Origin: Minisyncoccota bacterium | Lineage (GTDB): Bacteria > Patescibacteriota > Minisyncoccia > Phycocordibacterales > UBA9973 | Direction of reading: 5' to 3' | NCBI GenBank assembly: GCA_041664465.1 | Contig: JBAYKP010000003.1 | Location: 19,405-83,404, forward strand | DNA length: 64,000 nucleotides | In this document: in pieces, positions 7,223 to 63,563 of the stretch | How the letters are laid out: every line of letters starts with the position of its first letter | How positions within the stretch are numbered: position 1 is the first letter of the stretch | Position numbers and translations under genes: made by a program | The notes under the pieces: generated by a model | What the model saw: only the letters and a program-made list of their open reading frames with translations | What the model was told of the DNA's origin: nothing | Databases searched by the model: none

Positions 7223-7262
7223 TCCTCCCCTGTGAAGGGGAGGTGGCTCCTAGCCGGAGGGG
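7223..7262. repeat. hairpin repeat family 2, copy A (cctcccctgtgaaggggag gtggct..agcc ggagggg)
   Basis: matches the copies at 14797, 27419 and 62305; intergenic between tyrS and PBP; source of the spurious ORF 7171..7449. Confidence 0.5.
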
Positions 7263-7285: not shown

Positions 7286-9787
7286 ATGAAAAAAATATCA
7301 CCTAAGACATCTAAATTATTAAAAAATATAGCCTTTGTTTGTATTGGATTGGGGGTCATATTCACAGGAGTTCTCATTGTTTGGATTAGTACATTGAAAT
7401 TACCAGACTTTAAGCTTTTCACTGAAAGGAAAATACAAGGTTCTACCAAGATCTATGATCGCACAGGTGAGATATTACTTTATGATGTTCATGAAAATAT
7501 TAAAAGGACAGTAATCCCTTATGAAGAAATAGGAACTAATATAAAAAATGCCACAGTTGCTATCGAGGACTCAGATTTCTATAATCACAAGGGTATCCGT
7601 ATTTCTTCTATAATTCGAGCAACAATTTGGGCTAAACTAACCGGTAGAAAAGTTCAAGGAGGTTCTACCATAACTCAACAGTTAATTAAAAATACTCTTC
7701 TGACTCCAGAAGTAACCATCACTCGCAAAATGAAAGAGTGGATACTCTCAGTAAAACTTGAAAAGATTATGAGCAAGGAAGATATTCTCACTCTATATTT
7801 AAACGAAGCCCCTTATGGTGGTAATCTCTATGGGATAGAAGAAGCAGCTAAAGCCTTCTTCAATAAAGAACCGTTGAATCTAACATTGGCCGAATCAGCC
7901 TACTTAGCAGCTATACCCAATGGCCCGACATACTATTCTCCTTACAGGAAAAATAAAGATAAATTGGATGAAAGAAAAAATTTAGTTTTAAAAAGAATGC
8001 TAGATTTAAAATGGATAGATGAAGCGACGTACAATACTGCTAAGAATGAAGTGGTGGTCTTCATGCCTGAGCGTCCAATGAACATTGCAGCCCCACACTT
8101 TGTATTTTTTATTAAAGATTATTTAGAGAAACATTATGGAATAAATGCCCTAGAAGAAGGTGGATTTAAAGTTATAACGACACTTGATTATAATCTGCAG
8201 AAAAAGGCAGAGGAAGTCGCCTTGCAAAGATCAAAAGAAAATGAAAAGAGTTGGAATGGTAAAAATGCAAGTATTGTAGCTATTGATCCCAAGACAGGAC
8301 AAATATTGGCAATGGTAGGATCTCGTAATTATTTTGATAAGACAGTGGATGGAAATTTCAATGTAGCCACAGCCGCAAGACAGCCAGGTTCTTCTTTCAA
8401 GCCGATAGTCTACGCTGCCGCTTTCGAAAAAGGATATACCACAGATACAACTCTTTTCGATGTGAAAACAGAATTCAATGCTTCTTGTAGCCCAGAAGGT
8501 AATCCTCTCCCAGGGCACAAGAACGCTACTTGCTATACACCAAGTGATTATGATAATAAATATCGCGGTCCAATGACGCTCCGTGATGCCCTAGCTCAAT
8601 CTATAAACATAGTAGCTATTAAACTTCTATATTTAGTCGGGATAAATGATTCATTAAAAATGGCAAGTGATTTAGGAATTACTACTTTGACTGACCCATC
8701 TCGATATGGATTGTCTCTAGTCATCGGAGGAGGAGAGACGACTCTCCTAGAAATGACTTCTGCTTATAGTGTCTTTGCGGCCAATGGAATTCGCCATCCT
8801 TATAAAGAAATTCTTTCTGTGGAAGATGCTAGTGGAAAAGTCTTAGAAAAATATGAAGACAAGCCATATCAAGTCCTCACCCCTAATACTACAAATATTT
8901 TATCTAATATTTTATCGGACGATAAGGCTCGAACTCCTACTTTTGGAGTAAACTCTGTTTTGAATATTTCGGGACACAATACAGCTGTAAAGACTGGTAC
9001 CACCAATGACAACAAGGATGCTTGGACGATTGGCTATACCCCTTCTATTGCTGTTGGTGTCTGGGTTGGTAACAATGATAACATCCCAATGAAAAAAGGC
9101 GGTGCAGCCCTTGCTGGCCCTATCTGGAACGATGTGATGTCCTTTGCCCTCAAAGACAAACCAAATGAATTCTTTGAAGAACCAGAGCCAATTGATCAAA
9201 ATTTACCTCCTATAATCCGTGGCTTCTGGCAAGGGGGAGAAACTTTCACTACAGATACTCCCTCATATAGCACCATTACCGGTCTTCCTCTTCTAAATAA
9301 TAAAAAAGAGGTGTCAGTAACAAATGTTCATACTATCTTATATTGGATAGATAAGAATAACCCACTAAATATGACTCCAAGCAAAAGTACTAATGACTCA
9401 CTTTATACCAACTGGGAATATGGAGTACAAAAGTGGTGGACAAACAATTATATGAATTATCAAAATGTTTCAGCCCTAGAAAGACCAACTGGTAGCAACA
9501 TAGAGCTATCTAAGCCAGAATTTACTATCAGCGGGATACATCCCGATTCTTATAAAAATACAGATAATGTTTCTTTCACTATTAATTCTATTGGACAAAA
9601 TCAAATCAAAAAAATAGATGTATTTATAAATAATACATATTATAAATCATTAAAAACTGCGCCTTTTAATGTCTCTTTTACTCCGAAAGATATATCCCCT
9701 ATAACAACCAATAATACTATCCGCATTGTCGGCTATGACACACTAGGTGGTGTTGGAGAAACTACTACCACAGTATTAATAAAATAA
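7286..9787 (+). CDS. mrcA: class A penicillin-binding protein (transglycosylase plus transpeptidase) with about 180-aa C-terminal extension
   Basis: N-terminal TM anchor, GT51 motif EDSDFYNHKGI, transpeptidase SSFKP and KTGTT motifs. Confidence 0.85.
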   Translation: MKKISPKTSKLLKNIAFVCIGLGVIFTGVLIVWISTLKLPDFKLFTERKIQGSTKIYDRTGEILLYDVHENIKRTVIPYEEIGTNIKNATVAIEDSDFYNHKGIRISSIIRATIWAKLTGRKVQGGSTITQQLIKNTLLTPEVTITRKMKEWILSVKLEKIMSKEDILTLYLNEAPYGGNLYGIEEAAKAFFNKEPLNLTLAESAYLAAIPNGPTYYSPYRKNKDKLDERKNLVLKRMLDLKWIDEATYNTAKNEVVVFMPERPMNIAAPHFVFFIKDYLEKHYGINALEEGGFKVITTLDYNLQKKAEEVALQRSKENEKSWNGKNASIVAIDPKTGQILAMVGSRNYFDKTVDGNFNVATAARQPGSSFKPIVYAAAFEKGYTTDTTLFDVKTEFNASCSPEGNPLPGHKNATCYTPSDYDNKYRGPMTLRDALAQSINIVAIKLLYLVGINDSLKMASDLGITTLTDPSRYGLSLVIGGGETTLLEMTSAYSVFAANGIRHPYKEILSVEDASGKVLEKYEDKPYQVLTPNTTNILSNILSDDKARTPTFGVNSVLNISGHNTAVKTGTTNDNKDAWTIGYTPSIAVGVWVGNNDNIPMKKGGAALAGPIWNDVMSFALKDKPNEFFEEPEPIDQNLPPIIRGFWQGGETFTTDTPSYSTITGLPLLNNKKEVSVTNVHTILYWIDKNNPLNMTPSKSTNDSLYTNWEYGVQKWWTNNYMNYQNVSALERPTGSNIELSKPEFTISGIHPDSYKNTDNVSFTINSIGQNQIKKIDVFINNTYYKSLKTAPFNVSFTPKDISPITTNNTIRIVGYDTLGGVGETTTTVLIK

Positions 9788-14796: not shown

Positions 14797-14838
14797 CTCC
14801 CCCTGCTAAGGGGGAGTGCCTGAAAGGCGAGGGGGTCA
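14797..14838. repeat. hairpin repeat family 2, copy B
   Basis: ctccccctgctaagggggag tgcctgaaaggcga gggggtc; intergenic. Confidence 0.45.
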
Positions 14839-18531: not shown

Positions 18532-18560
18532 TATATAATATTTACCAAGTTATTGCATTT

Positions 18561-18654
18561 TCTCCCCTCCTTACCAAGGAGGGGACCAAGGAGAGGTTCT
18601 TAATTAATTAGGAACCTCTCCCTCCCCTCTCCTTAGTAAGGAGAGGAGCTAATT
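18561..18654. repeat. GC-rich palindromic repeat family 1, copy 2
   Basis: tctcccctccttaccaaggagggga...cttaattaattaggaacctctccc...ctccttagtaaggagagg; overlaps the VirB4 stop codon. Confidence 0.6.
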
Positions 18655-20478
18655 ACCACCCGACACAGCCAGATCATCCTTTGCTTTCTTAATAGCAAGG
18701 ATTTGAGATGGATCAGATGTGATAATTTGGTCTTCTGTATATGAAGCGATTGTCTTGATGGCTACGTGCTTGAGTCCAGCAAAGAATATTCCTTCTCCGA
18801 CATTGGCTTCGAGAAGTAGATACTTTTCTTCATCAGTAAGACTGAAAGTCTTCTGGAGGACATCAATAGTCGCTGGGGATTGCTTTAATAGAAGCTGAAT
18901 AGAAGAGTTCGTCACGATAGGCACGCCATAAGGGCTCTTCATAAAGTCCCCTACATCTTGGGTAATAGTAGCCAGACCTAGATAATATTTACGCCCTCTC
19001 TTAGCAATAGAATAAAGGAATGAAGCGGTATCTTCTGATTTCATCATCCACCAAGCTTCATCCACGACGAGTAATCGCTTCTTAAGATTTTTACGGACAG
19101 CATTCCAGATGAAGTGAGTGACTATATACATAGCCACAGGCTTGAGTTCATCTTCCATATCTCGCACAGAAAAGACGACGAATTTACGATTGATATCCAC
19201 ATTGGATGGTCTATTGATAAATGATGCCCAAGAACCGTGCGTATACTTCGCGATACGCTGTATTAGAGAGTTACTTCCCTCCATTCCAGCGAGGACAACT
19301 TCAAAGTCTGAAAGAAGTGGAGGTTCTATATTTGCAAAATTGGAAGATGCCGTTATGTCTTTCAGGGCATAAGTCTCTGTTATAGCTCGGTCTATGATGG
19401 AATCCTCTTCTGGCGTAAGTCCTCCGAGCATTATTCGGAATAATCCTACGAGGTTTATGGTATTGGAGCGGAGGACGTCGGCGGCTGTCTCATCCGGTCG
19501 TGGTATTGGTAGATCAAATGGGTTGATATGGTGGTCAGAGGAGAGGGCGATATTGAAATATCTACCACCTATGGCTTCTGCCAAGTATTCATATTCACGT
19601 TCAGGGTCTATGACAATAACTTCTGCATCAAACATAAGTGTACGGATAATTTCAAGCTTCGTGGCATAAGATTTACCAGCTCCAGCTGTGGCGAAAGTTA
19701 TAGAGTTGTAGTTTGGAAGAGAAAATCTGTCAAAAATGATAAGACTAGAGTTGTGCCTGTTCACTCCATAGAGAATTCCCTTATCTGAAGTCAAATCAAA
19801 TGAGACAAAAGGGAAAATACTTGAGAGAGGCTCTGTATCAAGCTTCTGATGAATTCCTAAAATATCAGTCCCCAGAGGAATAACACTTTTGAAGCCTTCA
19901 ACTTGTTGGAATAATGCTGGCTTCAAGTAGACAAGCTTAGAATCTAGAAGAGACTTCACCTCACTCTCTATTTTGAACAAATCATTTTCATTATCAGCAT
20001 AGACAGTAATATAAAGCCCCACATCAAACATTTTATTTTGAGCTTGCATTAGACTGTCACGCAAATTCTCGAGATCTTGGTAGGCAGTATCTAGCATCGG
20101 GTCGCGGACCAAACCTTTGGACTCACGGACAGATATTTGGCTTTGAACTTCCGCCACTTTCTTTTGGAAAGATCTTAGTATGTCGGCAGTTTCTATTGGG
20201 TGTATGAAGATAGAGACGTCAAAAATTTTGTCCAAGTTCACAATTGGTGAGAACCAATTATCCGTAAGATATCTAGGATAAGAAATGACGAAGAAAGTCC
20301 TCGCTATCTTATCTCCTAAATTTATAGACTTGGGGGTTATCTGAAGTGCCGAAGGTGCGATTACATCTTGGAGCTCAAGAGTGGCCGCTTTGTATATTTC
20401 GGTTGGCAAAACAGGCATAACGGTATTCGTCTGTTTTGATTTATTGCCCCCACTAAATATTGATGAAAATATTCCCAT
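18649..20478 (-). CDS. VirB4/TrbE/CagE-family T4SS ATPase, C-terminal part including the ATPase domain
   Basis: Walker A GAGKSY, Walker B hhhVVDEAW, family-typical central and C-terminal motifs. Confidence 0.75.
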   Translation of the reverse strand: MGIFSSIFSGGNKSKQTNTVMPVLPTEIYKAATLELQDVIAPSALQITPKSINLGDKIARTFFVISYPRYLTDNWFSPIVNLDKIFDVSIFIHPIETADILRSFQKKVAEVQSQISVRESKGLVRDPMLDTAYQDLENLRDSLMQAQNKMFDVGLYITVYADNENDLFKIESEVKSLLDSKLVYLKPALFQQVEGFKSVIPLGTDILGIHQKLDTEPLSSIFPFVSFDLTSDKGILYGVNRHNSSLIIFDRFSLPNYNSITFATAGAGKSYATKLEIIRTLMFDAEVIVIDPEREYEYLAEAIGGRYFNIALSSDHHINPFDLPIPRPDETAADVLRSNTINLVGLFRIMLGGLTPEEDSIIDRAITETYALKDITASSNFANIEPPLLSDFEVVLAGMEGSNSLIQRIAKYTHGSWASFINRPSNVDINRKFVVFSVRDMEDELKPVAMYIVTHFIWNAVRKNLKKRLLVVDEAWWMMKSEDTASFLYSIAKRGRKYYLGLATITQDVGDFMKSPYGVPIVTNSSIQLLLKQSPATIDVLQKTFSLTDEEKYLLLEANVGEGIFFAGLKHVAIKTIASYTEDQIITSDPSQILAIKKAKDDLAVSGGN

Positions 20479-21576: not shown

Positions 21577-22602
21577 CTATATTTCCTCATGATATGGATC
21601 GTGAGGTTTTGATTGAGGTTCTCCGCTCATCTTTGGTAGAGAATAGTCACTTACAGAAGCTTTGCTAGTTGTATTACCGAATAGTTTATTGGTGATGATG
21701 TTGGGAGTAGGTGTGGATTTTTCATCATCTGAAATTATTTCTATGCCGTGTTCTTTATACATATCAGTTTCTTTGGTATTCGTATTTGCAATTATATTTT
21801 CTATTTCACTTTGAGAAGACCCCTTCTGCCCTTCAGGCATCTCCCCCTTAGCAGGGGGCGAAGAAAATACAGGTGATGGTATCGGAACAACTTCTTCTTT
21901 CTTTTTCGCATAAGGCGGAAGTGGCACCTCATCATTTGATTTTTCATTCTTAACTACTTTTATCCCTTCTTCTTCTACATTTTTTATATTTTTAAATATA
22001 TTTTCATTTATTTCCCCCACCATTTCTTGTATTTTATCATTCCCCAAGTCTATCTTGGACCTTATGGCATCTTCATATTGATTACCCGCTATGGTATTCA
22101 GTATTACCTTTACTGTGATGTCTTCTAATATTCCCATTTGCTCCACATTAATCTTATACTTTCTAGCTACATCATATAATTTTTCTTTCCAATTAGAATA
22201 AGCAATTGATTCTTGGATGTCTTTCGGTAAGCTTGCAAAACGAAGATCAAGATTTTTATTATTTAAAGAGATTGCGTTGGATTGGAAAGTTTCAGTAAGC
22301 TCTCCTTTTATTGTTTTAAGGATATTTTCATCTATTTCTATTAATATTTTTTCTGTAACTTCTTTTTCTAATTCCAAATCTTTCCTTAAAATATTTTGAT
22401 ATTCTTCAATATGAATAATACCCAGTAATACCAAGGTGGTTTCTGTGGCTAAAATTTCTATCCGATTTTCTTTTAAACCATATTTAATACCAAGTTCTTT
22501 AAGTTTTTCCATCCAGAGCATAGAAGAGAAAACACTCTGAGCCTCTTTCGGGAGCTTCTGGTAGTATTCTGCTATTTTTTGTTGTAATTGTATTTGATCC
22601 AT
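21577..22602 (-). CDS. hypothetical protein; contains an in-frame partial copy of repeat family 2 (plus 21841-21860, encoding SPPAKGE)
   Basis: no recognisable family; inside the T4SS-like operon. Confidence 0.45.
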   Translation of the reverse strand: MDQIQLQQKIAEYYQKLPKEAQSVFSSMLWMEKLKELGIKYGLKENRIEILATETTLVLLGIIHIEEYQNILRKDLELEKEVTEKILIEIDENILKTIKGELTETFQSNAISLNNKNLDLRFASLPKDIQESIAYSNWKEKLYDVARKYKINVEQMGILEDITVKVILNTIAGNQYEDAIRSKIDLGNDKIQEMVGEINENIFKNIKNVEEEGIKVVKNEKSNDEVPLPPYAKKKEEVVPIPSPVFSSPPAKGEMPEGQKGSSQSEIENIIANTNTKETDMYKEHGIEIISDDEKSTPTPNIITNKLFGNTTSKASVSDYSLPKMSGEPQSKPHDPYHEEI

Positions 22603-27418: not shown

Positions 27419-27543
27419 GCTCCCCTGCTAAGGGGTGAGCTTGGGATTATGGGACCCAAGCGCAAGACCGTGAACGTTTTGTAACCAGAATGTGAACGGT
27501 GTACTGCTCCTGTAAGGAGGTGCCCGTAGGGCGAGGGGGTCTC
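27419..27543. repeat. hairpin repeat family 2, copy C, expanded with about 85 nt of additional GC-rich hairpins
   Basis: gctcccctgctaagggg ... gcttgggattatgggacccaagc ... tgcccgtagggcgagggggtc; intergenic. Confidence 0.45.
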
Positions 27544-33533: not shown

Positions 33534-34433
33534 CTAATTTTTTATAGAAAGATTGGATATTTCTATCCATTTTTCAAATTTGATATCCTCAGCTCTTGCC
33601 TTAGGATTTATATCTAATTTTTCAAATATTTCATCTATTTTATTTATATAAGGAAGTCCGACTTCCTTAATTTGTATGTTTGGAAGTCCGACTTCCAAAT
33701 TTTTACGGAGGACTTTTCTTTTATGAGCAAAGCCTGCTTTGATAAGTTGGAAGAATGAATCTTCTTCATTTTTATTTTTGAAAAATTTGTTGGAAATATC
33801 TCCTATGTGAATAATTGCCGAGTCCACCTTAGGAGCTGGGGAGAAGAATCTTTTATGAACTTTCATTATGTATTTTGGTGTGCTGAAAGCTTTCACGGAA
33901 AGAGAAAGAATACTTTCCTTCTCATCTCTTGCTACAATTCGCTCGGCTACCTCTTTCTGGACCAAGAGAGTCATACTGACAGGCTTTGGTTCTTCACTTA
34001 AAAATTTCCTAAGTATTAAACCGGTGATGTTGTAAGGAATGTTGGCGACTATCTTATAGGTATTAATTCCTCCCCTCCTTACTAAGGAGGGGACTGAGGG
34101 GAGGTTCTTAATTAATTCACCCCTCCCTAGCCCTCCCCTTAGTAAGGGGAGGGGATTAAAATTTAAAATATCTTCATTTAATAAAATTAGTTTTCCAGAT
34201 TTTATTTCTTCTGTGAATTTTTCATTAAGTATTTCTATCAAGTCGCGGTCTTTCTCAACCGCAATTACTTTCCTCGCTCTCTCTAAAAGTTTCTCTGTCA
34301 GTGCCCCCTTCCCTGGGCCAATTTCAACAACTATATCTTTATCATTCACACCACTCATCTCGCACATCTTGAAAAGCGCCTCTTTAGACTTCAAGAAATT
34401 CTGCCCCATACTTTTCTTTGCTTGATGAATCAT
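33534..34433 (-). CDS. rsmA: 16S rRNA (adenine1518/1519-N6) dimethyltransferase carrying an in-frame repeat insertion of about 32 aa
   Basis: MGQNFL, VEIGPGKGALT SAM motif, NIPYNI; the insert [32 protein letters not shown] is encoded by repeat family 1 copy 3. Confidence 0.8.
   Translation of the reverse strand: MIHQAKKSMGQNFLKSKEALFKMCEMSGVNDKDIVVEIGPGKGALTEKLLERARKVIAVEKDRDLIEILNEKFTEEIKSGKLILLNEDILNFNPLPLLRGGLGRGELIKNLPSVPSLVRRGGINTYKIVANIPYNITGLILRKFLSEEPKPVSMTLLVQKEVAERIVARDEKESILSLSVKAFSTPKYIMKVHKRFFSPAPKVDSAIIHIGDISNKFFKNKNEEDSFFQLIKAGFAHKRKVLRKNLEVGLPNIQIKEVGLPYINKIDEIFEKLDINPKARAEDIKFEKWIEISNLSIKN
34065..34157. repeat. GC-rich palindromic repeat family 1, copy 3, in frame inside rsmA
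   Basis: aattcctcccctccttactaaggaggggactgaggggaggttcttaattaatt...ccctccccttagtaaggggagggg. Confidence 0.6.
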
Positions 34434-34434
34434 A

Positions 34435-36372
34435 TTATAAGTATACTACCTTCTCTCCACCTTTTGAATAACTCTGCCTGAATTCTGTCAGGTGAACTGG
34501 GATGTCGTAGATGAATTCACTCGGAGTATTTACTTGTTTCATTCCGAAAATTGTACGCAATGTTGTATAAGTAAGGAAAAGTTTTTTCTCTGCTCTTGTG
34601 AGTGCCACATAGAAAAGTCTTCTCTCTTCCTCTTTATCTTCTTTCGTTCCCTGACCTGTTCTTGCATGTGGAAATAAATCTTGCTCAAGCCCCGTGACGA
34701 AGACATATTTGAATTCTAGCCCTTTCGATGCATGCACTGTCATCAATCTGACTCCGCCAGTTTTAGCTTTATTTATAAGGCTATCTTGGTCACTTGAAAG
34801 TGAAGCATCTTCTAAAAGTTTTTCTATTCCATTCTCCATTGTGTCATATTTTATGGCGAGAGTTACAAGCTCTTTCATATTTTCTAATCGTTCCATTTCT
34901 TCATTTGTACCATGCGAGAGTTCCTCTTCAAGTCCCGACTTCTCTATTATATATTTTATTATTTCAGATGGTTTATGCGTATCAATATACTCGTGAATAT
35001 TTTCTAATAATTCATAGAATTTATTTATTTTAATTTGCATTCCCGCTGGTAGTTCTGCGAACTGACCCGCGAAAAGTTTCGTGAGTGTCACCTTCCCTAC
35101 TCCACGAGCCGGAGTATTTATAATTCTTTTTATATCTGTTAGGCTTTCTTTATTCAAGCTTGCTTTAATATATGCGATGACATCTTTGATTTCTTTTCTC
35201 TCGAAAAATTTTACCCCAAGGACTTGGTAAGGAATTTGCCGAGAGAGCATTGCCTCTTCTAAGACGCGGGATTGAAAGTTCGCACGGTACAAGACTGCTA
35301 TATTCTCTGGTTTATTTTCTTTTAGGAGTTCATCTATTTCTTCCGCTACAAAATTTGCTTCTGATGTTTCATCATAAGCTTCGCAGACCACTATCTGCTC
35401 GCCATCTACATTTTTAGTAAATAAAGTTTTCGGTACTCTATACTGATTCTTCTCTATCACACTATTGGCAGCTTCTATTATCTTTCCTGTGGAGCGGTAA
35501 TTCTGCTCAAGCATCACAATCTTGGCATTCGGATAATCTTTTTCAAAACGAATCATGTTTTTAATGTTCGCTCCTCTCCATGAGTACACACATTGATCTT
35601 GATCCCCAACAATACAAATATTTTCATCTTTACTTACTAGAAGCTTCGTCATTTCATACTGCACTTCATTTGTATCTTGATACTCATCTATATGCACATA
35701 CTTCCACTTCTCTTGATATTTATTTTTAACCTCTGGAAACTTCCGCAAAATCATTACAGATTCCAAAAGTAAATCATCAAAATCAAGCCCTTTTTCATTT
35801 TTAAGTCTGGCTTCGTATCCACCCCAGACGAGGGCTACAATACTTTGCATGCTACTTTTCACCTCTCCTCTATAATTAGGAAGTGTAATAAAGTCACCTT
35901 TGGCTTTGGAAATAATACTTTTAATTTTCCTTGGCTCGTGTTGCTTCGGGTCTATATCGTGCTCTTTCATCACATCTTTGATAATAGAGATAGCGTCACT
36001 CTCGTCTATTATAGAGAAGTGCTTGGTAAGGCCTATCAGGTGGGCATTCTCTTTTATAATATGTACTCCAAGAGAATGAAAAGTAGAGACAAATGGAGTC
36101 CCCGCGCCAGAGCTTCGCTCTGGCGCACTTATCCCATGCCTTTTGTCTTCCAGTAGCATCATCACTCTATCTCGCATTTCCTTGGCAGCCTTATTTGTAA
36201 AGGTTACTGCCAGAATAGAAGAAGGATTCACTCCTTGATGTATCAAATGAATTATCCTGTGTGTTATCGTCTTCGTCTTCCCCGCCCCCGCCCCTGCTAC
36301 TATCAAAAGAGGCCCATCTGTATACAAGACTGCCTCTTTCTGTTTATCATTCAATTGCTCCAAATATTGCAT
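34435..36372 (-). CDS. uvrD: ATP-dependent DNA helicase UvrD/PcrA family
   Basis: GAGAGKTKT Walker A, DEYQDTN, QNYRST helicase motifs. Confidence 0.85.
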   Translation of the reverse strand: MQYLEQLNDKQKEAVLYTDGPLLIVAGAGAGKTKTITHRIIHLIHQGVNPSSILAVTFTNKAAKEMRDRVMMLLEDKRHGISAPERSSGAGTPFVSTFHSLGVHIIKENAHLIGLTKHFSIIDESDAISIIKDVMKEHDIDPKQHEPRKIKSIISKAKGDFITLPNYRGEVKSSMQSIVALVWGGYEARLKNEKGLDFDDLLLESVMILRKFPEVKNKYQEKWKYVHIDEYQDTNEVQYEMTKLLVSKDENICIVGDQDQCVYSWRGANIKNMIRFEKDYPNAKIVMLEQNYRSTGKIIEAANSVIEKNQYRVPKTLFTKNVDGEQIVVCEAYDETSEANFVAEEIDELLKENKPENIAVLYRANFQSRVLEEAMLSRQIPYQVLGVKFFERKEIKDVIAYIKASLNKESLTDIKRIINTPARGVGKVTLTKLFAGQFAELPAGMQIKINKFYELLENIHEYIDTHKPSEIIKYIIEKSGLEEELSHGTNEEMERLENMKELVTLAIKYDTMENGIEKLLEDASLSSDQDSLINKAKTGGVRLMTVHASKGLEFKYVFVTGLEQDLFPHARTGQGTKEDKEEERRLFYVALTRAEKKLFLTYTTLRTIFGMKQVNTPSEFIYDIPVHLTEFRQSYSKGGEKVVYL

Positions 36373-36395
36373 TCCCTTATTGTAGCATTTTATTT
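36305..36395. repeat. 91-bp direct repeat, copy 1 (native uvrD 5' end plus upstream region)
   Basis: near-identical to 37642-37732 (2 mismatches). Confidence 0.6.
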
Positions 36396-36406: not shown

Positions 36407-37537
36407 TTAGTTATATTCTTCTAGATTCTCTAAATATTTTTCTGCATTTTTTATTTTTGCACCAGATTTAGAAACCCTCTCTGTTTGTAGATTATATACT
36501 ACTTGCGTACTTTCCACTTTGTATTTTTCTCTGAAATATTCCAAGGTTTTTGATATACTACTATCAGAAACTTTTGCTTCAATGATTTCTATTAAATTAT
36601 TTTCACTATCTGATAAGGCAAAGTCCACCTCTTTCTTTTCTTTGGTCTTTAAAAATCCGAGAGAATATGAGGCTCCATCTCTATCATTTTTTAATTTTAT
36701 ATGTTTATACAAAGCAAGTGCTACGAAGTTTTCGAATTTTGCACCAACATCATTTATCAAAGCATAATCAAAGAAATAAATTTTAGGTTCTTTTAAGATT
36801 GAACGAGAAATTTTATGAGTGTATGGTTTTATTATAAATATAATATATATTGCTTCCAATATCTCAATATATTTTTTTACCGTAATAGAAGAAATCCCTA
36901 TATCTCCTGCGATATTACTATAACTTATAGGTGAGCCTACTTTATTTTTCAAAGATTGATATACAAGACGAATAGCATTCACTTTATCTATATCTTGAAA
37001 TTCTAAAACATCTTGTCCCAGAAGACTCTCAGTATATAAACTACGCCAACGGTTTACATCTTCATTGTTGCTGGCTAGTAATGGCTCGGGGAACCCGCTT
37101 CTTTCCATTAGTAAGCTTGCAACATTCTCTATATCACTTCCTTTTAATTCACTCAGAGTAAATGGGAATAGATGGTGGACATAGAATCGTCCAGCCAGCG
37201 AATCCCCCACTTTTTTAAATGCATCCATTCTAGCACTTCCAGTCACTAGTATGTGTACTGATGAAGATTTTGTATCATATACTCCCTTTAAATAATTTTT
37301 CCATTTTGGCATTTTATGGATCTCATCAAACACAATTAGATCAACATCAGGGAGCCAAGCTTCTTTTCGAATTATTTCTCGATGGTCACTGTTATCATAA
37401 TTCAAATAAACAGGATTTTTATATTCCTTCATTATCTCTTTGGCCAGCCAAGTCTTCCCCACTTGTCGTGGTCCCACAATAAAGACCATTTTCTTTTGTA
37501 AATCGGAGAGTATTTTGTTGTATATTTTCCTTTTCAT
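36407..37537 (-). CDS. AAA+ ATPase with C-terminal DUF4143-like domain
   Basis: Walker A GPRQVGKT, Walker B LIVFDEIH; flanked by the 91-bp direct repeats. Confidence 0.7.
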   Translation of the reverse strand: MKRKIYNKILSDLQKKMVFIVGPRQVGKTWLAKEIMKEYKNPVYLNYDNSDHREIIRKEAWLPDVDLIVFDEIHKMPKWKNYLKGVYDTKSSSVHILVTGSARMDAFKKVGDSLAGRFYVHHLFPFTLSELKGSDIENVASLLMERSGFPEPLLASNNEDVNRWRSLYTESLLGQDVLEFQDIDKVNAIRLVYQSLKNKVGSPISYSNIAGDIGISSITVKKYIEILEAIYIIFIIKPYTHKISRSILKEPKIYFFDYALINDVGAKFENFVALALYKHIKLKNDRDGASYSLGFLKTKEKKEVDFALSDSENNLIEIIEAKVSDSSISKTLEYFREKYKVESTQVVYNLQTERVSKSGAKIKNAEKYLENLEEYN

Positions 37538-37641: not shown

Positions 37642-37732
37642 AAAAGAGGCCCATCTGTATACAAGACTGCCTCTTTCTGTTTATCATTCAATTGCTCCAA
37701 ATATTGCATTCTCCTATTGTAGCATTTTATTT
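37642..37732. repeat. 91-bp direct repeat, copy 2 (duplicate of the uvrD 5' end)
   Basis: near-identical to 36305-36395; overlaps the stop of ORF 37727..38035. Confidence 0.6.
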
Positions 37733-38035
37733 GCCTATTTCACTCATTATTTCAGCGCTTTCTTCTCTTAATTTCTCTGCCTCTTCTTTTACTATTTCAT
37801 CTAGATTGGGAACTTTTTCTGAAAGAAAACCAAATATGTTTTCTGGGTCTGGATTCTTTTCAATTAATTTTTCAAAAGTATCTTTATCTTCTTCTGAAAG
37901 TATGTCCAATACACGAAGCATTACTTCTTGATAAACGATAGCTCCAAGGCGCTCCATCGCTTCTTTTTGTTTTTCGACTGGTAAAGTATTGATACCTAGG
38001 ATAAGCACTATATTTTTATTTATATCATTAAACAT
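37727..38035 (-). CDS. small acidic hypothetical protein
   Basis: 102-aa helical Glu/Lys-rich ORF; 3' end overlaps repeat copy 2. Confidence 0.35.
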   Translation of the reverse strand: MFNDINKNIVLILGINTLPVEKQKEAMERLGAIVYQEVMLRVLDILSEEDKDTFEKLIEKNPDPENIFGFLSEKVPNLDEIVKEEAEKLREESAEIMSEIGK

Positions 38036-55981: not shown

Positions 55982-56959
55982 TTATAGATCACATCCCGAT
56001 GGGCCGTTACCAGCCCCTCTCATCGTGATTTTTTTACCTGCCACTTTCGCGGCAAAGTAAATAGCCTCTTTTATTTCTTCTTCTGTAATTTCCAGAATTG
56101 ATTTCCCAGTTTTTACAAAAAATGAAATTAAAGATCCAGCGAACCAGTCGCCGGCGCCTGTAGGGAATATTTCTTCTCCATCAAAAATATAATCAGTATA
56201 AGCATCAAATTTCTCTGTTACCTCTGTTACATTATTTGAGAGTGAATATTTTCCGCCATCTCTGTCTTTAGTTACAACCACAAGGGATACTCCGAACATT
56301 TTTTGGATATCTGCTCTTGACCCAATTTCCTTATAGTGTGTACATGCTTCGTATTCAGCATGATTTATAACTAAGACATCTGTTTGTCTTAACAAATTAA
56401 AGAAAATTTCTTTTGATTGGATTAGATCCATTCTCGGATTCAAATATCTGAATCCTTTGTGATTTTCTCCAAAAAGAGCTTTTACTAAATCTGATTCAGA
56501 CGGTCGCGTACCAGTGGCAATTTTCCAAACATTTTTTCCTACATCCTGTTCTATAATTTTGATGCAGTCAGAAATTTTACTCGGCAGTAGATTCCCTTTA
56601 TATCCGAATACTTGAGAGGATTTTTTTATTCCGTCTATGGGTATAAACCCCATATGTCCCTGTTCAAGTATTGGGAATTCAACTGTTTGGATTTTTTCAT
56701 GCGAATACTTTAGAGCATAACGGAAACAATGAGTATAAAAATCATCATTGTATCCAGTTAAAGTATAAAGCGTACTTTGTATTCCCATTTTTGCCATTGC
56801 TTTGGCGACGTTTGATGACGTCCCACCAAGTTCGCAGGTCATTTCCTCTAAAGGAGCCTTTTCAGATTCCTCAAGTCTATTTATGCGAACTATTATTTCT
56901 GGGTTCGCAGAAAACCCAATGAATGCCATAGGTTTCCCAATTTCTTTTACCTTTTCCAT
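55982..56959 (-). CDS. PfkB-family carbohydrate/nucleoside kinase
   Basis: C-terminal TGAGDWFAG (GAGD) motif; ribokinase-like fold length. Confidence 0.65.
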   Translation of the reverse strand: MEKVKEIGKPMAFIGFSANPEIIVRINRLEESEKAPLEEMTCELGGTSSNVAKAMAKMGIQSTLYTLTGYNDDFYTHCFRYALKYSHEKIQTVEFPILEQGHMGFIPIDGIKKSSQVFGYKGNLLPSKISDCIKIIEQDVGKNVWKIATGTRPSESDLVKALFGENHKGFRYLNPRMDLIQSKEIFFNLLRQTDVLVINHAEYEACTHYKEIGSRADIQKMFGVSLVVVTKDRDGGKYSLSNNVTEVTEKFDAYTDYIFDGEEIFPTGAGDWFAGSLISFFVKTGKSILEITEEEIKEAIYFAAKVAGKKITMRGAGNGPSGCDL

Positions 56960-57056
56960 AATAATGTACAGTTTTGATTAAAATTTATTTTATATTAATT
57001 TGATTTTAATTTTTTTCTTCATCCTATTCTTTTTTTATCATTTAGTCAAAAATAAA

Positions 57057-57085
57057 AACACCTCTAAATTAGAGGTGTTTTTTGG
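57057..57085. terminator. bidirectional terminator (acacctcta-aat-tagaggtgt flanked by A-run and T-run)
   Basis: read directly; downstream of the NYN gene. Confidence 0.5.
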
Positions 57086-57093
57086 GCTATATT

Positions 57094-57591
57094 TTAATAC
57101 ATCAGATATTTTCTCGGATTAGCAGATAGGTCGAGGAAGTCGTCGGCAACTTCTTTTAATTTCATTGAAGTTGATTTGCCGAATGAGATTACTTCTACTT
57201 GCGTTGTATTCTTTAAATATTCAACTAATGGAACGAAGTCACCATCACCAGTTATTAAAATTACCGCGTCAATTCGTGCAGCCATAATAATAGCATCTAC
57301 AGTAATTCCTACATCCCAATCCCCCTTCTTTGCTCCACCCGCAAATATTTGCAAGTCTTTGGTCTTTGTCTCTATCCCTAATTTTGTTAATGCATCAAAA
57401 AAGTTTTTCTCTTCACCTCCTTCACTTGTTATCACATATGCGATAGCACGGACAAGCTTCCTCCCTGCGACAGCATCTCTTAGAACAGCCCCGAAGTTTA
57501 CTTTCCTTTTATATAAATTTTTGGCAGAGTGATATAGGTTTGATGTATCTATGAAAACTCCGACCCTCTGTTCTTTTTGTTTTATTATCAT
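57094..57591 (-). CDS. NYN-domain (LabA/DUF88-like) protein
   Basis: VGVFIDTSNLY ... ILITGDGDFVPL NYN nuclease-fold motifs. Confidence 0.7.
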   Translation of the reverse strand: MIIKQKEQRVGVFIDTSNLYHSAKNLYKRKVNFGAVLRDAVAGRKLVRAIAYVITSEGGEEKNFFDALTKLGIETKTKDLQIFAGGAKKGDWDVGITVDAIIMAARIDAVILITGDGDFVPLVEYLKNTTQVEVISFGKSTSMKLKEVADDFLDLSANPRKYLMY

Positions 57592-57607
57592 ATATTACTA
57601 TTATAGC

Positions 57608-57634
57608 AAAATAAAAAGCCTCTTGCGAGACTTC
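57608..57634 (-). terminator. rpsO terminator (GUCUC-GCAA-GAGGC followed by UUUUUAUUUU)
   Basis: GNRA-loop hairpin plus U-run on the minus strand immediately after the rpsO stop. Confidence 0.4.
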
Positions 57635-57640
57635 TTATTA

Positions 57641-57910
57641 TTAAGCTTTAATTTTTTTAATTTCTTTCTCGTGGCGACTCTTGTCTGTCTTCTCTAAGTA
57701 TTTAAGGTGAGTTCTCCTGTCTGCTACCATTTTGATAAGTCCACGGCGTGAATGGTTGTCTTTCTTGTGGATTTTAAGGTGGTCGGCTAATTCGTCAATT
57801 CTTTTAGATAGAACGGCAATCTGCACCTCTGGGCTTCCTGTATCTTTATCATGAAGCTGATTCTTCTTTATAATATTTTGCTTTTTCTTTGTTGTTAACA
57901 TGATTGGCAT
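57641..57910 (-). CDS. rpsO: 30S ribosomal protein S15
   Basis: [14 protein letters not shown]...[11 protein letters not shown] signature. Confidence 0.85.
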
Positions 57911-57945
57911 ATAGTAGCATAAAATCTTGGTAATTGCAAGGGGGT

Positions 57946-58043
57946 GTTCCCCCTCCCCTTACTAAGGGGAGGGTTGGGGAGGGGTTCCTAATTAATTAAG
58001 AACCTCCCCTCAATCCCCTCCTTGGTAAGGAGGGGAGGAATTA
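57946..58043. repeat. GC-rich palindromic repeat family 1, copy 4
   Basis: ccccctccccttactaaggggagggttggggaggggttcctaattaattaagaacctcccctcaatcccctccttggtaaggaggggaggaatt; rpsO/xerC intergenic. Confidence 0.6.
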
Positions 58044-58062
58044 AATTCATATGGTATAATTA

Positions 58063-59004
58063 TTGTGCGACATTATGAACACAAAACTTGAACAACTTAA
58101 AAGGGAGTTTTTGGAGCATGTGGAAATAGAGAAAGGAAATAGCTTAAAGACTGTGAATAATTACGACCATTACATAAGTCGTTTTTTGGATTTTGCCAAG
58201 ATTGATAATCCGAAAGATATTACAGACGATAAAATTCGTGAGTTTAGACTTTTCTTAAATAGACAGCCTGGGGTGAAGGTTCGTGGGCAATCATCCGCGA
58301 CTCTCAAGAAGAATACACAGAATTACTATCTGATAGCCCTTCGGACTTTTCTTAAATATCTTATGAAAAGAGATGTCCCCTCCCTTTCTCCTGATAGAAT
58401 AGACTTGGCAAAAGTAAAAGAACGCTCGCTAGATCTTATCTCTGTGGATGAACTTAATAGATTATTGAAGGCCCCTGAGTCTTCCCCTAGGTCGGACCTA
58501 GGGGCAAAAAAATCTTTGCGTGATAAAGCAATTCTTGAGCTTTTCTTCTCGACAGGTCTTCGTCTCTCAGAGCTTTGCTCACTTAATAGAGATTTAGATT
58601 TATCAAAAGATGAATTTTCAATTCGTGGAAAAGGGGAAAAGGTAAGAGTAGTCTTCCTTTCTGATTCGGCCAAGAGTGCGATAAGAGAATATTTGAAAAA
58701 TAGAAAGGATTTAGATGAGCCATTATTCATACAATATTCTAGGAATGGGGCCAAGGGGAACCGTTTAACACCAAGATCTATAGAGAGGATAGTGAAATAC
58801 TATGCAATAAAGGCTGGGATATCAAAGAAAGTTACTCCGCATGTTATTCGCCATTCGTTCGCCACTGACTTACTTTCAAATGGTGCCGATATTCGCTCGG
58901 TCCAGATGATGCTCGGGCATGCCAACATTGCTACGACACAGATATACACACACATAACAGACAAGCAACTTCGTGACGTGCATAAGAAGTTTCATTCGAA
59001 TTAA
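58063..59004 (+). CDS. xerC: tyrosine recombinase XerC/XerD family, with a 7-aa in-frame palindrome insertion (SPRSDLG)
   Basis: C-terminal catalytic motifs HVIRHSFAT...LGHANIATTQIYTH; the CCTAGGTCGGACCTAGG palindrome at 58484-58504 lies in the coding sequence. Confidence 0.8.
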   Translation: MCDIMNTKLEQLKREFLEHVEIEKGNSLKTVNNYDHYISRFLDFAKIDNPKDITDDKIREFRLFLNRQPGVKVRGQSSATLKKNTQNYYLIALRTFLKYLMKRDVPSLSPDRIDLAKVKERSLDLISVDELNRLLKAPESSPRSDLGAKKSLRDKAILELFFSTGLRLSELCSLNRDLDLSKDEFSIRGKGEKVRVVFLSDSAKSAIREYLKNRKDLDEPLFIQYSRNGAKGNRLTPRSIERIVKYYAIKAGISKKVTPHVIRHSFATDLLSNGADIRSVQMMLGHANIATTQIYTHITDKQLRDVHKKFHSN

Positions 59005-59018
59005 TATATAATAAAATT

Positions 59019-59792
59019 ATGAAAATAATTAGCTGGAATACAAATGGTTTGCGGGCGACGGCGAAGCAAGGGAATCTCATTCCCCTTTTTGCATATAACA
59101 ATGCAGACATTGTCTGCTTGCAGGAGACCAAGTGTGAGCCGGATCAGCTAGATGACGCCACGAGGAATTTAAAGGGTTATCATTCATATTTTTCATATTC
59201 TAAACTTCGTAAGGGTTATAGTGGTGTGGCTATTTATTCTAAAGTGGAGCCCTTAAAGGTTGAATATGATATGGGTATTAAAAGATTTGATGATGAAGGG
59301 CGAACGATTGTCGCTTATTACCCGAATTTTGTTTTAATAAATTGTTACTTCCCTAACGCAGGCATTGATCCTGCAAGATTAAAATATAAATTAGAATTTT
59401 ACGATGCATTTTTGAAATTTATAAATAAACTGAAAAAAAGTGGCAAGAATGTAATCTTCACTGGTGATGTGAATACTGCTCACAATGCTATTGACCTCGC
59501 TCGTCCGAAAGCCAACGAGAACAATACCGGCTTCTTAAGAATAGAAAGAGACTGGCTTGATAAAGTTGTTGCGAATGATTTCGTGGATATCTTCCGCACT
59601 CTTCACCCTGAAATGAAGGATGTATACACTTATTGGGATATGAAGACCGGTGCCCGAGCCCGTAACGTCGGCTGGCGTATAGATTACTTCTTCACAAACG
59701 AATCTTTCCTAAAAAATGTAAAATCTTTCAAAACCCTTACAGATTACCCCGGCTCAGATCACTGCCCGATAATGATTGACATTAGTGTCTAG
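59019..59792 (+). CDS. xth: exodeoxyribonuclease III (AP endonuclease)
   Basis: MKIISWNTNGLRA N-terminus, QETK, SDHCP C-terminal motifs. Confidence 0.85.
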   Translation: MKIISWNTNGLRATAKQGNLIPLFAYNNADIVCLQETKCEPDQLDDATRNLKGYHSYFSYSKLRKGYSGVAIYSKVEPLKVEYDMGIKRFDDEGRTIVAYYPNFVLINCYFPNAGIDPARLKYKLEFYDAFLKFINKLKKSGKNVIFTGDVNTAHNAIDLARPKANENNTGFLRIERDWLDKVVANDFVDIFRTLHPEMKDVYTYWDMKTGARARNVGWRIDYFFTNESFLKNVKSFKTLTDYPGSDHCPIMIDISV

Positions 59793-59839
59793 ATAGGAGT
59801 AGAATTAAAATAAGTTTTAGTAAGCCTTAGTAGTTAGAA

Positions 59840-59880
59840 AGCGGTATGTGTAGCCCCCTGCACATTGCCGCTTTTTTATT
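59840..59880 (+). terminator. probable terminator after xth (imperfect hairpin aagcggtatgtg...cacattgccgc followed by TTTTTTATTT)
   Basis: stem imperfect; T-run clear. Confidence 0.35.
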
Positions 59881-59990
59881 TAAGCATCTGGGTAACCAGT
59901 GCCACCATTTGGTCTTTTTTGTTTGGATGGCTTTCAGCAATGTATTTTTGTTATATAGGCTTTATTTATAAAGAATAATTTTAAGGATGG

Positions 59991-60026
59991 TTGACAGTTG
60001 ACAGTAAACTGTCAACCATATATACT
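59991..60026 (+). promoter_or_regulatory. strong promoter with embedded palindromic operator: tandem TTGACAGT, inverted repeat GTTGACAG-taaa-CTGTCAAC, -35 TTGACA (59998-60003), 17-nt spacer, -10 TATACT (60021-60026)
   Basis: read directly; the -10 ends 7 nt before the ATG at 60034. Confidence 0.45.
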
Positions 60027-61054: not shown

Positions 61055-62611
61055 TTATACCCCATGCTTTTTGTGTAATTTCTCAATTTCTTCTTTTTCT
61101 AGTTCATCCTTTTTCTCTTTTCCGCGTTCCCCTAGTGTTTTCAGCTCATCATCGCCGAGCATATCTAGGGAAGCGACTAATTCACTCAGATGCTCAGGAG
61201 TGTTTTTGGTGGGGTCGTCGAGGACTTCTTCGAGGAGGGCATTCAGAATCCATCCCATTCGGGGCCCAGGTTTCATGTGTAACACCTCCATCATATACTT
61301 GCCGTTAATAGCTAATTGACCGACGGAGATAGGATCACGGAGGACTTCTTCTATCATTGCATGATATTTGCGGAGTCTATAAGGGGTCTCTTTCTTCTTC
61401 ATTCCTACCCTATCGCACTCGCGAACATTCATAAGGTCCCAGATATTCTCCTTGCCGACATGCTGGACTACCCTTCTGACAGCCGAAAGTGTTATCTTCT
61501 CTGTATCTGAGAAGAACATATGGTTTCTCGTGAAACTAATCACCTTTTCTATAGTATTTCTAGGATATTTCAATCTTTCCATTATTTGCTTTGTCATTCT
61601 AGCTCCTATCACTTCGTGGCCGTAGAATGTATATTCTTTCTTGGTTCCTACCCTTCTAGACCTTGGCTTGCCTATATCGTGAAAGAGGGCTGAAAGACGA
61701 ACTTCCAAAGACCAGCCTTTATTTGCAGCATGATCGAGAGCATGAAGTAGATGCTCCCAAACATCATATATATGGGCACCTTTCTGCTCGCATCCTATAC
61801 CCTCTTCAAGTTCTGGAATTATATATTTGAGCAAATTAAGCTTTTGGAGTAAGCCTATTCCAGCGACTGGATTATCTGAGTTTATTATCTTTGTGAATTC
61901 ATCACGGATTCTTTCAAAAGATATATTCTTTATTAAACTTGAATTATCTACAATTGCCTGCATTGTTTCATATGAAACAGCAAAATCGAGTTGGACGGAG
62001 AATCGAATAGCTCGAAGCATACGTAAGGCATCTTCCCTAAATCTATCATTCGGGTTACCTACGGCTCTGATAACTTTGTCCTTTATGTCCTTTACACCAC
62101 CAAATAAATCTATAAGATGTCCGTTACTATGACTACCCTCCTTTGCCAAGGCTATGGCGGGCGAGTAAGCCAAAGCATTGATTGTAAAGTCTCGTCTTTT
62201 TAAATCATCTTCTATATTTTCACTGAAATTTACTTCGTCCGGATGGCGAAAATCGCTATATTTTGCTTCGGTTCTATAGGTTGTAACCTCAATTATTGTA
62301 TTTTCCTCCCCTGCTAAGGGGAGGTGGCTGTAAGCCGGAGGGGTCAAAGGGAGAACTATTCCAACGGTTCCAAATTTATTCTCATATATAGTCTTTTCAA
62401 ATAAAGGTATTATCCCCTCGGGTTTAGCATTTGTGGCTATATCCCAATCTTTTGGTTCCCTCTCTAATATTAGATCTCTTACACAGCCACCCACTAGAAA
62501 GGCCTCAAAACCTGCTTTTTTGAGTGTTTCCGTTACACGTGTAACATATTCTGGTATTTTTGACTTATCTATGTTTAGATGATTAGTCATAATATTTATA
62601 AAGTTAGTCAA
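61055..62611 (-). CDS. cca: CCA-adding tRNA nucleotidyltransferase / poly(A) polymerase family HD-domain protein, with a 16-aa in-frame repeat insertion
   Basis: GGCVRDLIL, RDFTINALAY head-domain motifs, HD domain; the insert PLTPPAYSHLPLAGEE is encoded by repeat family 2 copy D. Confidence 0.75.
   Translation of the reverse strand: MTNFINIMTNHLNIDKSKIPEYVTRVTETLKKAGFEAFLVGGCVRDLILEREPKDWDIATNAKPEGIIPLFEKTIYENKFGTVGIVLPLTPPAYSHLPLAGEENTIIEVTTYRTEAKYSDFRHPDEVNFSENIEDDLKRRDFTINALAYSPAIALAKEGSHSNGHLIDLFGGVKDIKDKVIRAVGNPNDRFREDALRMLRAIRFSVQLDFAVSYETMQAIVDNSSLIKNISFERIRDEFTKIINSDNPVAGIGLLQKLNLLKYIIPELEEGIGCEQKGAHIYDVWEHLLHALDHAANKGWSLEVRLSALFHDIGKPRSRRVGTKKEYTFYGHEVIGARMTKQIMERLKYPRNTIEKVISFTRNHMFFSDTEKITLSAVRRVVQHVGKENIWDLMNVRECDRVGMKKKETPYRLRKYHAMIEEVLRDPISVGQLAINGKYMMEVLHMKPGPRMGWILNALLEEVLDDPTKNTPEHLSELVASLDMLGDDELKTLGERGKEKKDELEKEEIEKLHKKHGV
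62305..62345. repeat. hairpin repeat family 2, copy D, in frame inside cca
   Basis: cctcccctgctaaggggag gtggctgtaagcc ggaggggtc. Confidence 0.5.
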
Positions 62612-63128: not shown

Positions 63129-63563
63129 GTGTTTCACGTGGCACACTTTATGAAGAATTTTACTTCAAATTCTCAAAAGATAGGAGAGTTGGGCGAGGAT
63201 GTCGCTTGTAAGTTTCTCATGAAACACGATTTTTCTATATTAGAAAGGAATTATACTAAGAAATGGGGGGAGATAGATATAATAGCCCAAAAAGGGGATA
63301 AGAGGTATTTCATAGAAGTGAAATCGAAAAGTGTATCCTCTTTAGATTTTGCTACGGGCTTTAATGAGGATGGGAAAGAGACCAATAGACCCGAAGAGAA
63401 TATGCACCCTTGGAAGATGAGGAGACTTCGAAGGATAGTGGAGACTTACTTGATAAGCAAGAGGCTAGGATATGTAGACTGGCAGTTTGACTTACTAGTT
63501 GTGTATTTAGATATTGACCACAGAAAGGCAAGAGTGAAAGTAGTAGAGAATATAATATTGTGA
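63129..63563 (+). CDS. yraN: YraN/UPF0102-family predicted endonuclease
   Basis: GELGEDVACKFL...ILERNY...GEIDIIA...FIEVKSK matches the YraN PD-(D/E)xK signature. Confidence 0.65.
   Translation: MFHVAHFMKNFTSNSQKIGELGEDVACKFLMKHDFSILERNYTKKWGEIDIIAQKGDKRYFIEVKSKSVSSLDFATGFNEDGKETNRPEENMHPWKMRRLRRIVETYLISKRLGYVDWQFDLLVVYLDIDHRKARVKVVENIIL

Follow-up and report, generated by a model that had tools for sequence, protein, structure and literature searches.

A stretch of 64,000 nucleotides from a Minisyncoccota bacterium (contig JBAYKP010000003.1, positions 19,405 to 83,404; the window, from here on) shows a GC content of about 35% and contains a dispersed family of GC-rich elements of 40-55 nt, some of them located between genes and others in frame within conserved genes such as cca, which encodes the CCA-adding enzyme. 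Each element shows a homopyrimidine/homopurine hairpin, a small GC hairpin and a purine tail which mirrors the purine arm of the first hairpin, and it is very probably a repeat of triplex design, belonging to the PIT/TM class, that is tolerated in frame. The whole explanation, in which a self-maintaining repeat of this class survives in frame and is translated in the manner of the Rickettsia palindromic elements (RPE), is the one we favour, with moderate confidence. The Cca protein of the window is identical to one annotated from a metagenome-assembled genome of Candidatus Paceibacterota, the Parcubacteria of the candidate phyla radiation (CPR).

The exact core of the element, CCCCTGCTAAGGGG, is found four times in the window: three times on the forward strand (14800, 27422 and 62308) and once on the reverse strand (21844). 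With up to two mismatches there are eight matches (the four exact ones and four with two mismatches) against 0.17 expected from shuffles, and the homopurine/homopyrimidine hairpin with its mirror tail is present as 12 units in the window and as none in 30 dinucleotide shuffles. A preliminary description of the same DNA had proposed a dispersed repeat family, to be given up if the motif occurred at random frequency; copies A-D are found at the sites it listed, and the frequency of the core in the window is not random. Alignment and repeat finding show hairpin 1, hairpin 2 and a GGAGGGG or GAGGGGG tail common to these four copies (Table 1). Copy E, described before as a partial copy at 21841-21860, is in fact full length and slightly degenerate. 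For copy C, an expansion by nested hairpins had been described; the insert is present, but it has about 80 nt (27440-27520), shows three additional hairpins and interrupts a single copy, whose purine arm it separates from hairpin 2.

From 5' to 3', the element contains a 7-nt pyrimidine arm, a 6-nt TGCTAA loop, the complementary purine arm, T or TG, a small GC hairpin, a C, a 7-nt purine tail and T(C). Two arm subtypes are found, CCTCCCC (type 1) and CTCCCCC (type 2), so that all copies of the element show 7-bp arms of CCTCCCC/GGGGAGG or CTCCCCC/GGGGGAG, as the PIT/TM design demands. The Paceibacteria copies usually have a T-rich extension, TGTATTTTT, 5' of the first arm, and in copy D an element-associated T-rich extension is located at about 62295-62304. 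Both hairpins are predicted on either strand; the intact copies A, B and D have z-scores between -3.2 and -4.0. Sixteen different 39-mers, taken from the window and from other genomes, keep Watson-Crick pairing in 100% of the cells, and five of the 11 pairs change on both sides: two in the arm hairpin and three of the four pairs in hairpin 2, which played no part in the selection of the sequences and whose stem is found as GGCT/AGCC, GCCC/GGGC, GTCC/GGAC, GGCC/GGCC or CCCC/GGGG. Loop 1 has 6 nt, and loop 2 has 10-25 nt and forms its own hairpin.

Stable hairpins, and the GGAGG and CCTCC contained within the arms, would also suit an element acting at the RNA level, one that ends transcription as an intrinsic terminator, stabilises mRNA or regulates by sequestering a Shine-Dalgarno-like GGAGG. 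Copy B, between convergent genes, shows a terminator-like score on the minus strand. A terminator role for copies near gene ends, which the preliminary description had raised as a question, fits this copy, on this strand alone, and does not fit copies A and C, the other two tested. The other four copies (A, C, D and E) are away from 3' ends or have no T-run, the copies within open reading frames (ORFs) are found in both orientations and the mirror tail serves no terminator function. Rfam, searched at gathering and permissive thresholds, shows no family match, since tRNAs alone pass gathering and the best match on the element has an E-value of about 5. An RNA-level element is judged very unlikely.

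The tail does not complement the purine arm of hairpin 1, nor does it repeat that arm directly; it mirrors it: GGGGAGG is followed by GGAGGGG, and GGGGGAG by GAGGGGG. This rule is obeyed by at least seven arm variants: GGGGAGG, GGGGGAG, GGAGGGG, GAGAGGG, GGGAGGA, GAGGGGG and GGGAAGG. A census of 1.1 Mb of Paceibacteria DNA, made on asymmetric homopurine arms with the tail at most 45 nt away and with the direct repeat as a control of the same composition, shows 33 perfect mirror tails and one perfect direct repeat in 80 hairpin-strands. The copy within the Cca of locus L125 (protein P0019), CCCTTCC-hairpin-CCTTCCC-TTAGCA-GGGAAGG, has one position altered concertedly in all three strands, which corresponds to the change of a G.G-C into an A.A-T triad. 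Mirror geometry would give the element the potential to form an intrastrand purine-motif triplex, with the purine tail antiparallel to the purine arm and G.G-C and A.A-T triads, and on the opposite strand the symmetry would permit a pyrimidine-motif triplex, with the third strand parallel to the purine strand. The mirror rule is kept through several arm variants and in many phyla, a comparative argument for the importance of the third strand. A G-quadruplex, also considered, was set aside: it would need neither the complementary pyrimidine arm nor the mirrored position of the A.

The window also contains a family of about 100 nt (2059-2200, 18551-18655, 34059-34152 and 57940-58043) with a second loop of 3-7 nt and tail-to-tail pairs, which follows the mirror rule too. 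The hairpin-bridged elements had been described as a second, separate family, and the identity of their third segment, ggaggggtc, as the mirror of the purine arm had been overlooked. Because both obey the same mirror rule, the short-loop and the hairpin-bridged families are one class.

Copy D is located in frame within cca, which reads it on the minus strand as ..VLPLTPPAYSHLPLAGEENTIIEVTTYR.., including TPPAYSHLPLAGE, at the beta-hairpin immediately before the EVTTYR strand. In the 120 closest Cca orthologues (70-91% identity) the flanks are nearly invariant, FGTVGVCIP ... KYHILEVTPYR, and the loop between them is hypervariable, ranging from 5 to about 55 residues. Distant orthologues show a loop of 14-15 aa (V-I-Q-E-D-V-S-Q-E-T-L-R-Q-I-E) which does not contain the element, and the solved CCA enzymes (PDB 6ibp and 1miv) are, by alignment, about 15 residues shorter at the beta-hairpin preceding the EVTTFR strand; the segment is an insertion, as had been proposed. 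Its position in Cca is taken from this alignment to the solved enzymes, since the AlphaFold2 model, made from a 30-sequence alignment, has a pLDDT below 50 across the head domain and does not place the insert. Element-derived peptides are present in a patchy subset of the orthologues, a distribution also shown by an unweighted pair group (UPGMA) tree of Cca outside the loop, whose resolution is too poor for counting independent insertions. Copy D is common to the window and to two related loci, L123 and L043. It is identical at 40 of 41 positions in each of them, with the sole difference in the loop of hairpin 2, and the remainder of cca is 85% and 74% identical, respectively (binomial p of about 0.01 and 7e-5 for the excess conservation of copy D). 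This conservation covers synonymous positions as well. In a third relative, L124 (P0029), the Cca loop contains a degenerate forward type-2 copy, a G and a reverse type-1 copy, which form a tail-to-tail pair with the junction GGGGTCGACCCC; compared with it, the window shows a 33-nt in-frame deletion, beside which a remnant of the lost forward partner is found (Table 1).

Copy E is located in the gene of a 341-aa protein of the type IV secretion system (T4SS) cluster, whose neighbours include the genes of a TraG/VirB4-like ATPase and of a T4SS pilin + SLT protein. The ORF reads it as ..PVFSSPPAKGEMPEGQKGS.., and the forward-frame reading is SSPPAKGEMPEGQKG. The in-frame translation of copies D and E, already noted in the preliminary description, is thus confirmed. 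The site is a low-complexity hypervariable linker between the conserved VPLPPYA and NIIxxKLF. The copy is missing from the closest orthologue (P0122, 70% identity), other orthologues have one or two copies, and P0133 contains the element in both orientations. A tail-to-tail pair of short-loop triplex repeats (34059-34152) encodes a 29-residue in-frame insert in KsgA/RsmA, the 16S rRNA dimethyltransferase (33534-34433), where the conserved motif NIPYNI follows directly. In related genomes, where the identities of the host genes were read from translations and are putative, in-frame copies are found in TsaD (L032, three copies), PheT and PheS (L035), MurI (L010), the UvrD/PcrA helicase (L102), YraN (L073) and a second site of Cca (L074, L077 and L099).

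Four of the six reading frames of the element are free of stops, and all four are used in genes, giving the mutually unrelated peptides TPPAYSHLPLAGE, DPLAFQALPLSRG, SPPAKGE.. and LPLLRGSAQGARG. A stop (TAA or TAG) arises solely in the loop and in one frame per orientation. The earlier statement of an open frame kept in a single orientation is wrong, being too narrow. Intergenic copy A, read in the frame of copy D, does give the near-identical peptide TPPARSHLPFTGEE, as had been pointed out. Because all four stop-free frames are used and their peptides are unrelated, the constraint acts on the nucleic acid and not on the peptide. A protein-level module, in which selection would favour the inserted peptide ..TPPAYSHLPLAGEE.. 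for a function that it has in Cca and in other proteins, could explain that the peptide is kept in several Cca orthologues and that its location is always an exposed loop, but copies A-C have this DNA between genes, the frames give unrelated peptides, most Cca orthologues have no such peptide in a loop that is otherwise hypervariable, and conservation reaches synonymous positions. This alternative is barely credible.

The distribution of the element was scanned in one genome per species, with a 21-nt pattern which ends before hairpin 2 closes and does not include the tail. The scan shows 42 loci in about 10 phyla, with a GC content from 33 to 67%: Paceibacteria/Nomurabacteria, Oscillospiraceae and other Clostridia, Planctomycetota, Verrucomicrobiota, Spirochaetota, Leptospirae, Bacteroidota, Gammaproteobacteria, Chloroflexota and Synergistota. 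Of 46 complete hits, 38 contain a clade-specific hairpin of 3-10 bp (with a 9-bp stem in Oscillospiraceae), a C and a perfect mirror tail, one contains a direct repeat and the rest have one-mismatch tails; the mirror to direct ratio is therefore 38:1 across phyla and 33:1 in the CPR. Almost all non-CPR copies are outside long ORFs, whereas many Paceibacteria copies are deep within genes. As a further observation, the element is repeated within the genomes of loci L001, L007, L025, L027, L028, L030, L037, L038 and L040 (Oscillospiraceae/Clostridia), L008 and L015 (Planctomycetota), L031 (Spirochaetota) and others, and the copies of distant phyla are mostly just upstream of genes; L038, for instance, shows two tandem copies 5' of glpK.

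The repeat class is gained and lost between relatives. Copy E differs in presence or absence among orthologues, and the contig of L123, which is syntenic with the window from 55 to 64 kb at about 84% nucleotide identity, contains a short-loop pair between two genes where the window has just a 14-nt spacer. In the same contig, positions 9356-9455, orthologous to the pair at 57940-58043 of the window, are a run of N, which suggests that these repeats break metagenome assemblies or lead to scaffold gaps. An element that is short, dispersed, rich in hairpins, arranged in REPIN-like inverted pairs and variable among relatives could be a conventional non-autonomous transposon: a miniature transposable element with inverted repeats (MITE), or a repetitive extragenic palindrome (REP) or REPIN moved by a RAYT/IS200-type transposase. 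However, neither copies A-E nor the cca comparisons, where the empty sites are too diverged for exact junctions, show any terminal inverted repeats or target site duplications; the GTAG/CGTC tag is in none of the aligned copies; the 30 window proteins scanned include no RAYT/Y1 or other transposase and a sole recombinase, which is XerC/D-like; and no copy of the element is present in 2.9 million viral contigs. Such a transposon is improbable.

Among known repeats, REP and REPIN sequences resemble the element in being GC-rich hairpins of 20-40 nt, single or in inverted pairs, and more conserved than their surroundings, but they are extragenic and have no mirror third segment, and the element has no GTAG/CGTC tag. 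The RPE, which Ogata and colleagues are said to have described in 2000, are reportedly simple palindromes of 100-150 bp found only in Rickettsia. Like the element, they are short hairpin-forming repeats of selfish appearance in a reduced genome, located both between genes and in frame in conserved protein genes, missing from orthologues and translated as extra surface segments; the in-frame insertions of the element in conserved genes, missing from orthologues, are of the same type. Unlike the element, which has 40-55 nt, they show no homopurine mirror or triplex design; thus, the likeness is one of behaviour, and RPE-1 to RPE-8 are set apart by description. The RPE are mentioned in PMC1779305 and PMC10969869.

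The architecture is that of the PIT elements and of TMECO, 5'-CCCTCNCCC-N3-6-GGGNGAGGG-N3-GGGNGAGGG, whose single-stranded DNA adopts in vitro a triplex of the class II purine motif (Holder et al., 2015; PMC4666352). Both designs show a C-rich stem, a loop, the complementary G-rich stem, a loop and a mirror G-rich stem (class II purine motif); both are found as GC-rich multicopy islands with tail-to-tail inverted pairs of two subtypes, small local deletions and presence/absence variation, and neither is linked to a transposon or phage. In E. coli K-12, TMECO is always intergenic, and two of its subtypes often stand together as an inverted pair; it goes along with instability of the locus and with small deletions, including partial deletions of TMECO pairs, and shows no link to mobile elements, no promoter or terminator activity and no association with gene classes (PMC4666352). 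The stem of TMECO has 9 nt and that of the element 7 nt, with no sequence similarity between them. The hosts differ as well: Enterobacteria or Cyanobacteria for PIT/TMECO, and Paceibacteria plus about 10 other phyla for the element. TMECO is strictly intergenic, whereas copies of the element are present in Cca, the 341-aa protein, KsgA, MurI, PheS/T, TsaD and UvrD. The short second loop of the PIT/TM design is found in the short-loop family of the window (3-7 nt) and not in the element, where the loop is a covarying hairpin of 10-25 nt. Since the loops in the ITxF search were limited to 1-6 nt (PMC4666352), the hairpin-bridged form would escape it; for the PIT elements, loops of 0-10 nt are given (Hoyne et al., 2000, as cited in PMC4666352). 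Among the papers covered by a text search, none has the core sequence or ties the CPR to RPE-like or triplex insertions. The element is a hairpin-bridged variant of the known PIT/TM repeat class, one that earlier searches could not pick up, with RPE-like behaviour.

In the explanation preferred here, the pyrimidine arm of a single strand would pair with the purine arm across TGCTAA, the small GC hairpin would make the turn and the tail would lie in the major groove. The element would be a self-maintaining repeat at the DNA level, probably selfish, whose gain and loss may pass through single-stranded intermediates formed in replication or repair and which may land preferentially in DNA that is already hairpin-prone. 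In the gene-dense Paceibacteria, it would survive only where its length is divisible by three and a stop-free frame hits a permissive surface loop or linker, and the copies within genes would be translated as a neutral peptide, as in RPE. The original insertion in cca was probably the tail-to-tail pair seen in relatives, and the lineage of the window would have lost one partner through the 33-nt deletion.

Several points weigh against this explanation. The triplex is a potential one, given by the symmetry of the sequence, and ViennaRNA gives no triplex score; the stems have just 7 nt, and the second loop is much longer than that of any tested triplex motif. For TMECO, no triplex was detected in vivo (PMC4666352). 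Two abundant subtypes carry much of the mirror covariation, for which shared ancestry could be part of the explanation. Because no mobilising enzyme was found among the 30 window proteins scanned, and no terminal inverted repeats or target duplications around copies A-E or on comparison of the cca loci, the mode of spread is conjecture. Finally, a near-perfect copy D within a diverging cca is unlike a neutral passenger and needs structural selection or gene conversion. Because this conservation exceeds what is expected of a neutral passenger, a functional reading stays open: a cis-acting signal under selection, such as a replication-pause, recombination, chromosome-organisation or protein-binding site, whose in-gene copies would be coding by coincidence. 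Copy D, at 40 of 41 positions while cca falls to 74% identity, fits such a signal, and so do the same architecture and conserved junction bases in about 10 phyla, a density of about 12 units per 64 kb in a streamlined genome and the location of cca next to a GC-skew minimum and a parS-like cluster. On the other hand, the position and orientation of the element relative to genes are not fixed, close relatives differ in its presence, many copies are degenerate or interrupted (C and E), TMECO shows no promoter or terminator activity or gene-class association (PMC4666352), and no partner protein was identified. A cis-acting signal is a possible but doubtful explanation. A bolder version is rather unlikely: a cross-phylum, actively maintained, hairpin-bridged base-triple fold which would form in vivo and be kept intact in essential genes of ultra-small CPR bacteria through selection or copy-correction, with the cca loop near the origin doubling as a landing pad for the element and for parS sites. 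If true, it would imply that DNA can propagate in a new, transposase-independent way, or that the chromosome has a function not recognised so far.

The Cca loop, a hotspot in general, carries parS-like palindromes besides the element. Its units VSRET, VTHET and VTHVT are translations of (T)GTT(T/A)CNNNNG(A/T)AAC(A), a palindrome found five times in the window against 0.2 expected: four copies are in cca, where their frames differ, and the fifth is in the UPF0102 gene next to it. The unconstrained positions of the palindrome give TGTTTCAC(G/A)TGAAACA, a match to the ParB-binding parS consensus TGTTNCACGTGAAACA (PMC7022226). In dozens of Paceibacteria (cca loci L043-L122) parS-like palindromes are found in several frames, with one to five copies per Cca beta-hairpin loop. 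In 38 related loci all the palindromes are in cca or at most 1.7 kb away, with none elsewhere in the 10-kb flanks; those outside cca are nearly all within 1.6 kb upstream, and two are just downstream. The cumulative GC skew has its minimum at about 56000-60000, with a turn near 58-60 kb, and gene orientation changes from mostly minus to plus near 58 kb. Skew and orientation fit an origin-proximal parS cluster, which suggests a replication origin next to the cca/parS locus, and the coding Cca loop may double as a centromere array; neither ParB nor DnaA is among the 30 window proteins scanned. Several Cca loops show a GC hairpin nested in the middle of the palindrome, such as GTTTC-CCCCACCCCTAGGGTGGGG-GAAAC; this nesting suggests that further hairpin elements accumulate in DNA already prone to form hairpins.

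Other peptide modules recur in the variable regions of unrelated proteins: ..RASIDNARHDSAESH.., ..ACPPPLSSNNRDSGRE.., LEPRTSNLEPN (tandem units of CTAGAACCT) and I-K-N-E-E-L-G-I-K-N. They are carried by Cca and 341-aa protein orthologues P0028, P0056, P0140, P0145 and P0152, and by P0063 and P0084, many of them with ITNDQLPITN or IKNEELGIKN, and they point to further repeat families that may be translated in frame. The window also contains a direct repeat of 91 nt, unrelated to the hairpin repeats, with two copies 1.3 kb apart at 98% identity (36305-36395 and 37642-37732). The UvrD-like gene (34435-36372) has the first at its 5' end, and the second overlaps the start of a 102-aa ORF (37727-38035) and the spacer before a 376-aa ORF (36407-37537).

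Table 1. Copies of the repeat class, host genes and parS-like palindromes in the window.
Feature	Position	Strand	Description
Copy A	7224-7262	+	type 1, loop TGTGAA; intergenic, between the divergent starts of TyrRS/TrpRS-type and PBP1 genes
Copy B	14797-14835	+	type 2, CTCCCCC/GGGGGAG, tail GAGGGGG; between convergent gene ends
Copy C	27419-27541	+	degenerate type 2; intergenic, upstream of a MazF-like gene
Copy D	62305-62343	+	type 1, CCTCCCC-TGCTAA-GGGGAGG-T-GGCTGTAAGCC-GGAGGGG; within cca
Copy E	21820-21860	-	degenerate type 2, CGCCCCC-TGCTAA-GGGGGAG-A-TGCCTGAAGGGCA-GAAGGGG; full length
Short-loop class member	34059-34152		tail-to-tail pair, in frame inside KsgA/RsmA
Short-loop class member	57940-58043		tail-to-tail pair between genes, shortly upstream of the gene of a XerC/D-like integrase
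Short-loop class member	2059-2200		intergenic, three triplex-type units clustered
Short-loop class member	18551-18655		intergenic tail-to-tail pair within the T4SS cluster
cca	61055-62590	-	CCA-adding enzyme, 511 aa; Pfam PolyA_pol head, RNA-binding, HD and tRNA_NucTran2_2
CTCCCTTTG	62345-62353	-	codons LPL; pyrimidine arm and loop-start remnant of the lost forward partner (comparison with L124)
341-aa T4SS-cluster protein	21577-22602	-	hosts copy E
parS-like palindromes in cca	61269-61284, 61522-61537, 61964-61979, 62531-62546		consensus TGTTTCAC(G/A)TGAAACA
parS-like palindromes beyond cca	63130-63145, 63211-63226 (UPF0102 gene)		consensus TGTTTCAC(G/A)TGAAACA

More than 20 years after intrastrand triplex repeats became known, they have no assigned function, and they had been regarded as extragenic. 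The copies described here within genes are elements that form part of what codes for essential enzymes in the gene-dense Paceibacteria, a parallel to the Rickettsia palindromic elements, and an element inside a gene evolves more slowly than its host gene. Such repeats break assemblies, as at the orthologous site of a relative, which is a run of Ns. Their inserts enlarge and diversify the proteins of the CPR, and could mislead annotation and structure prediction.

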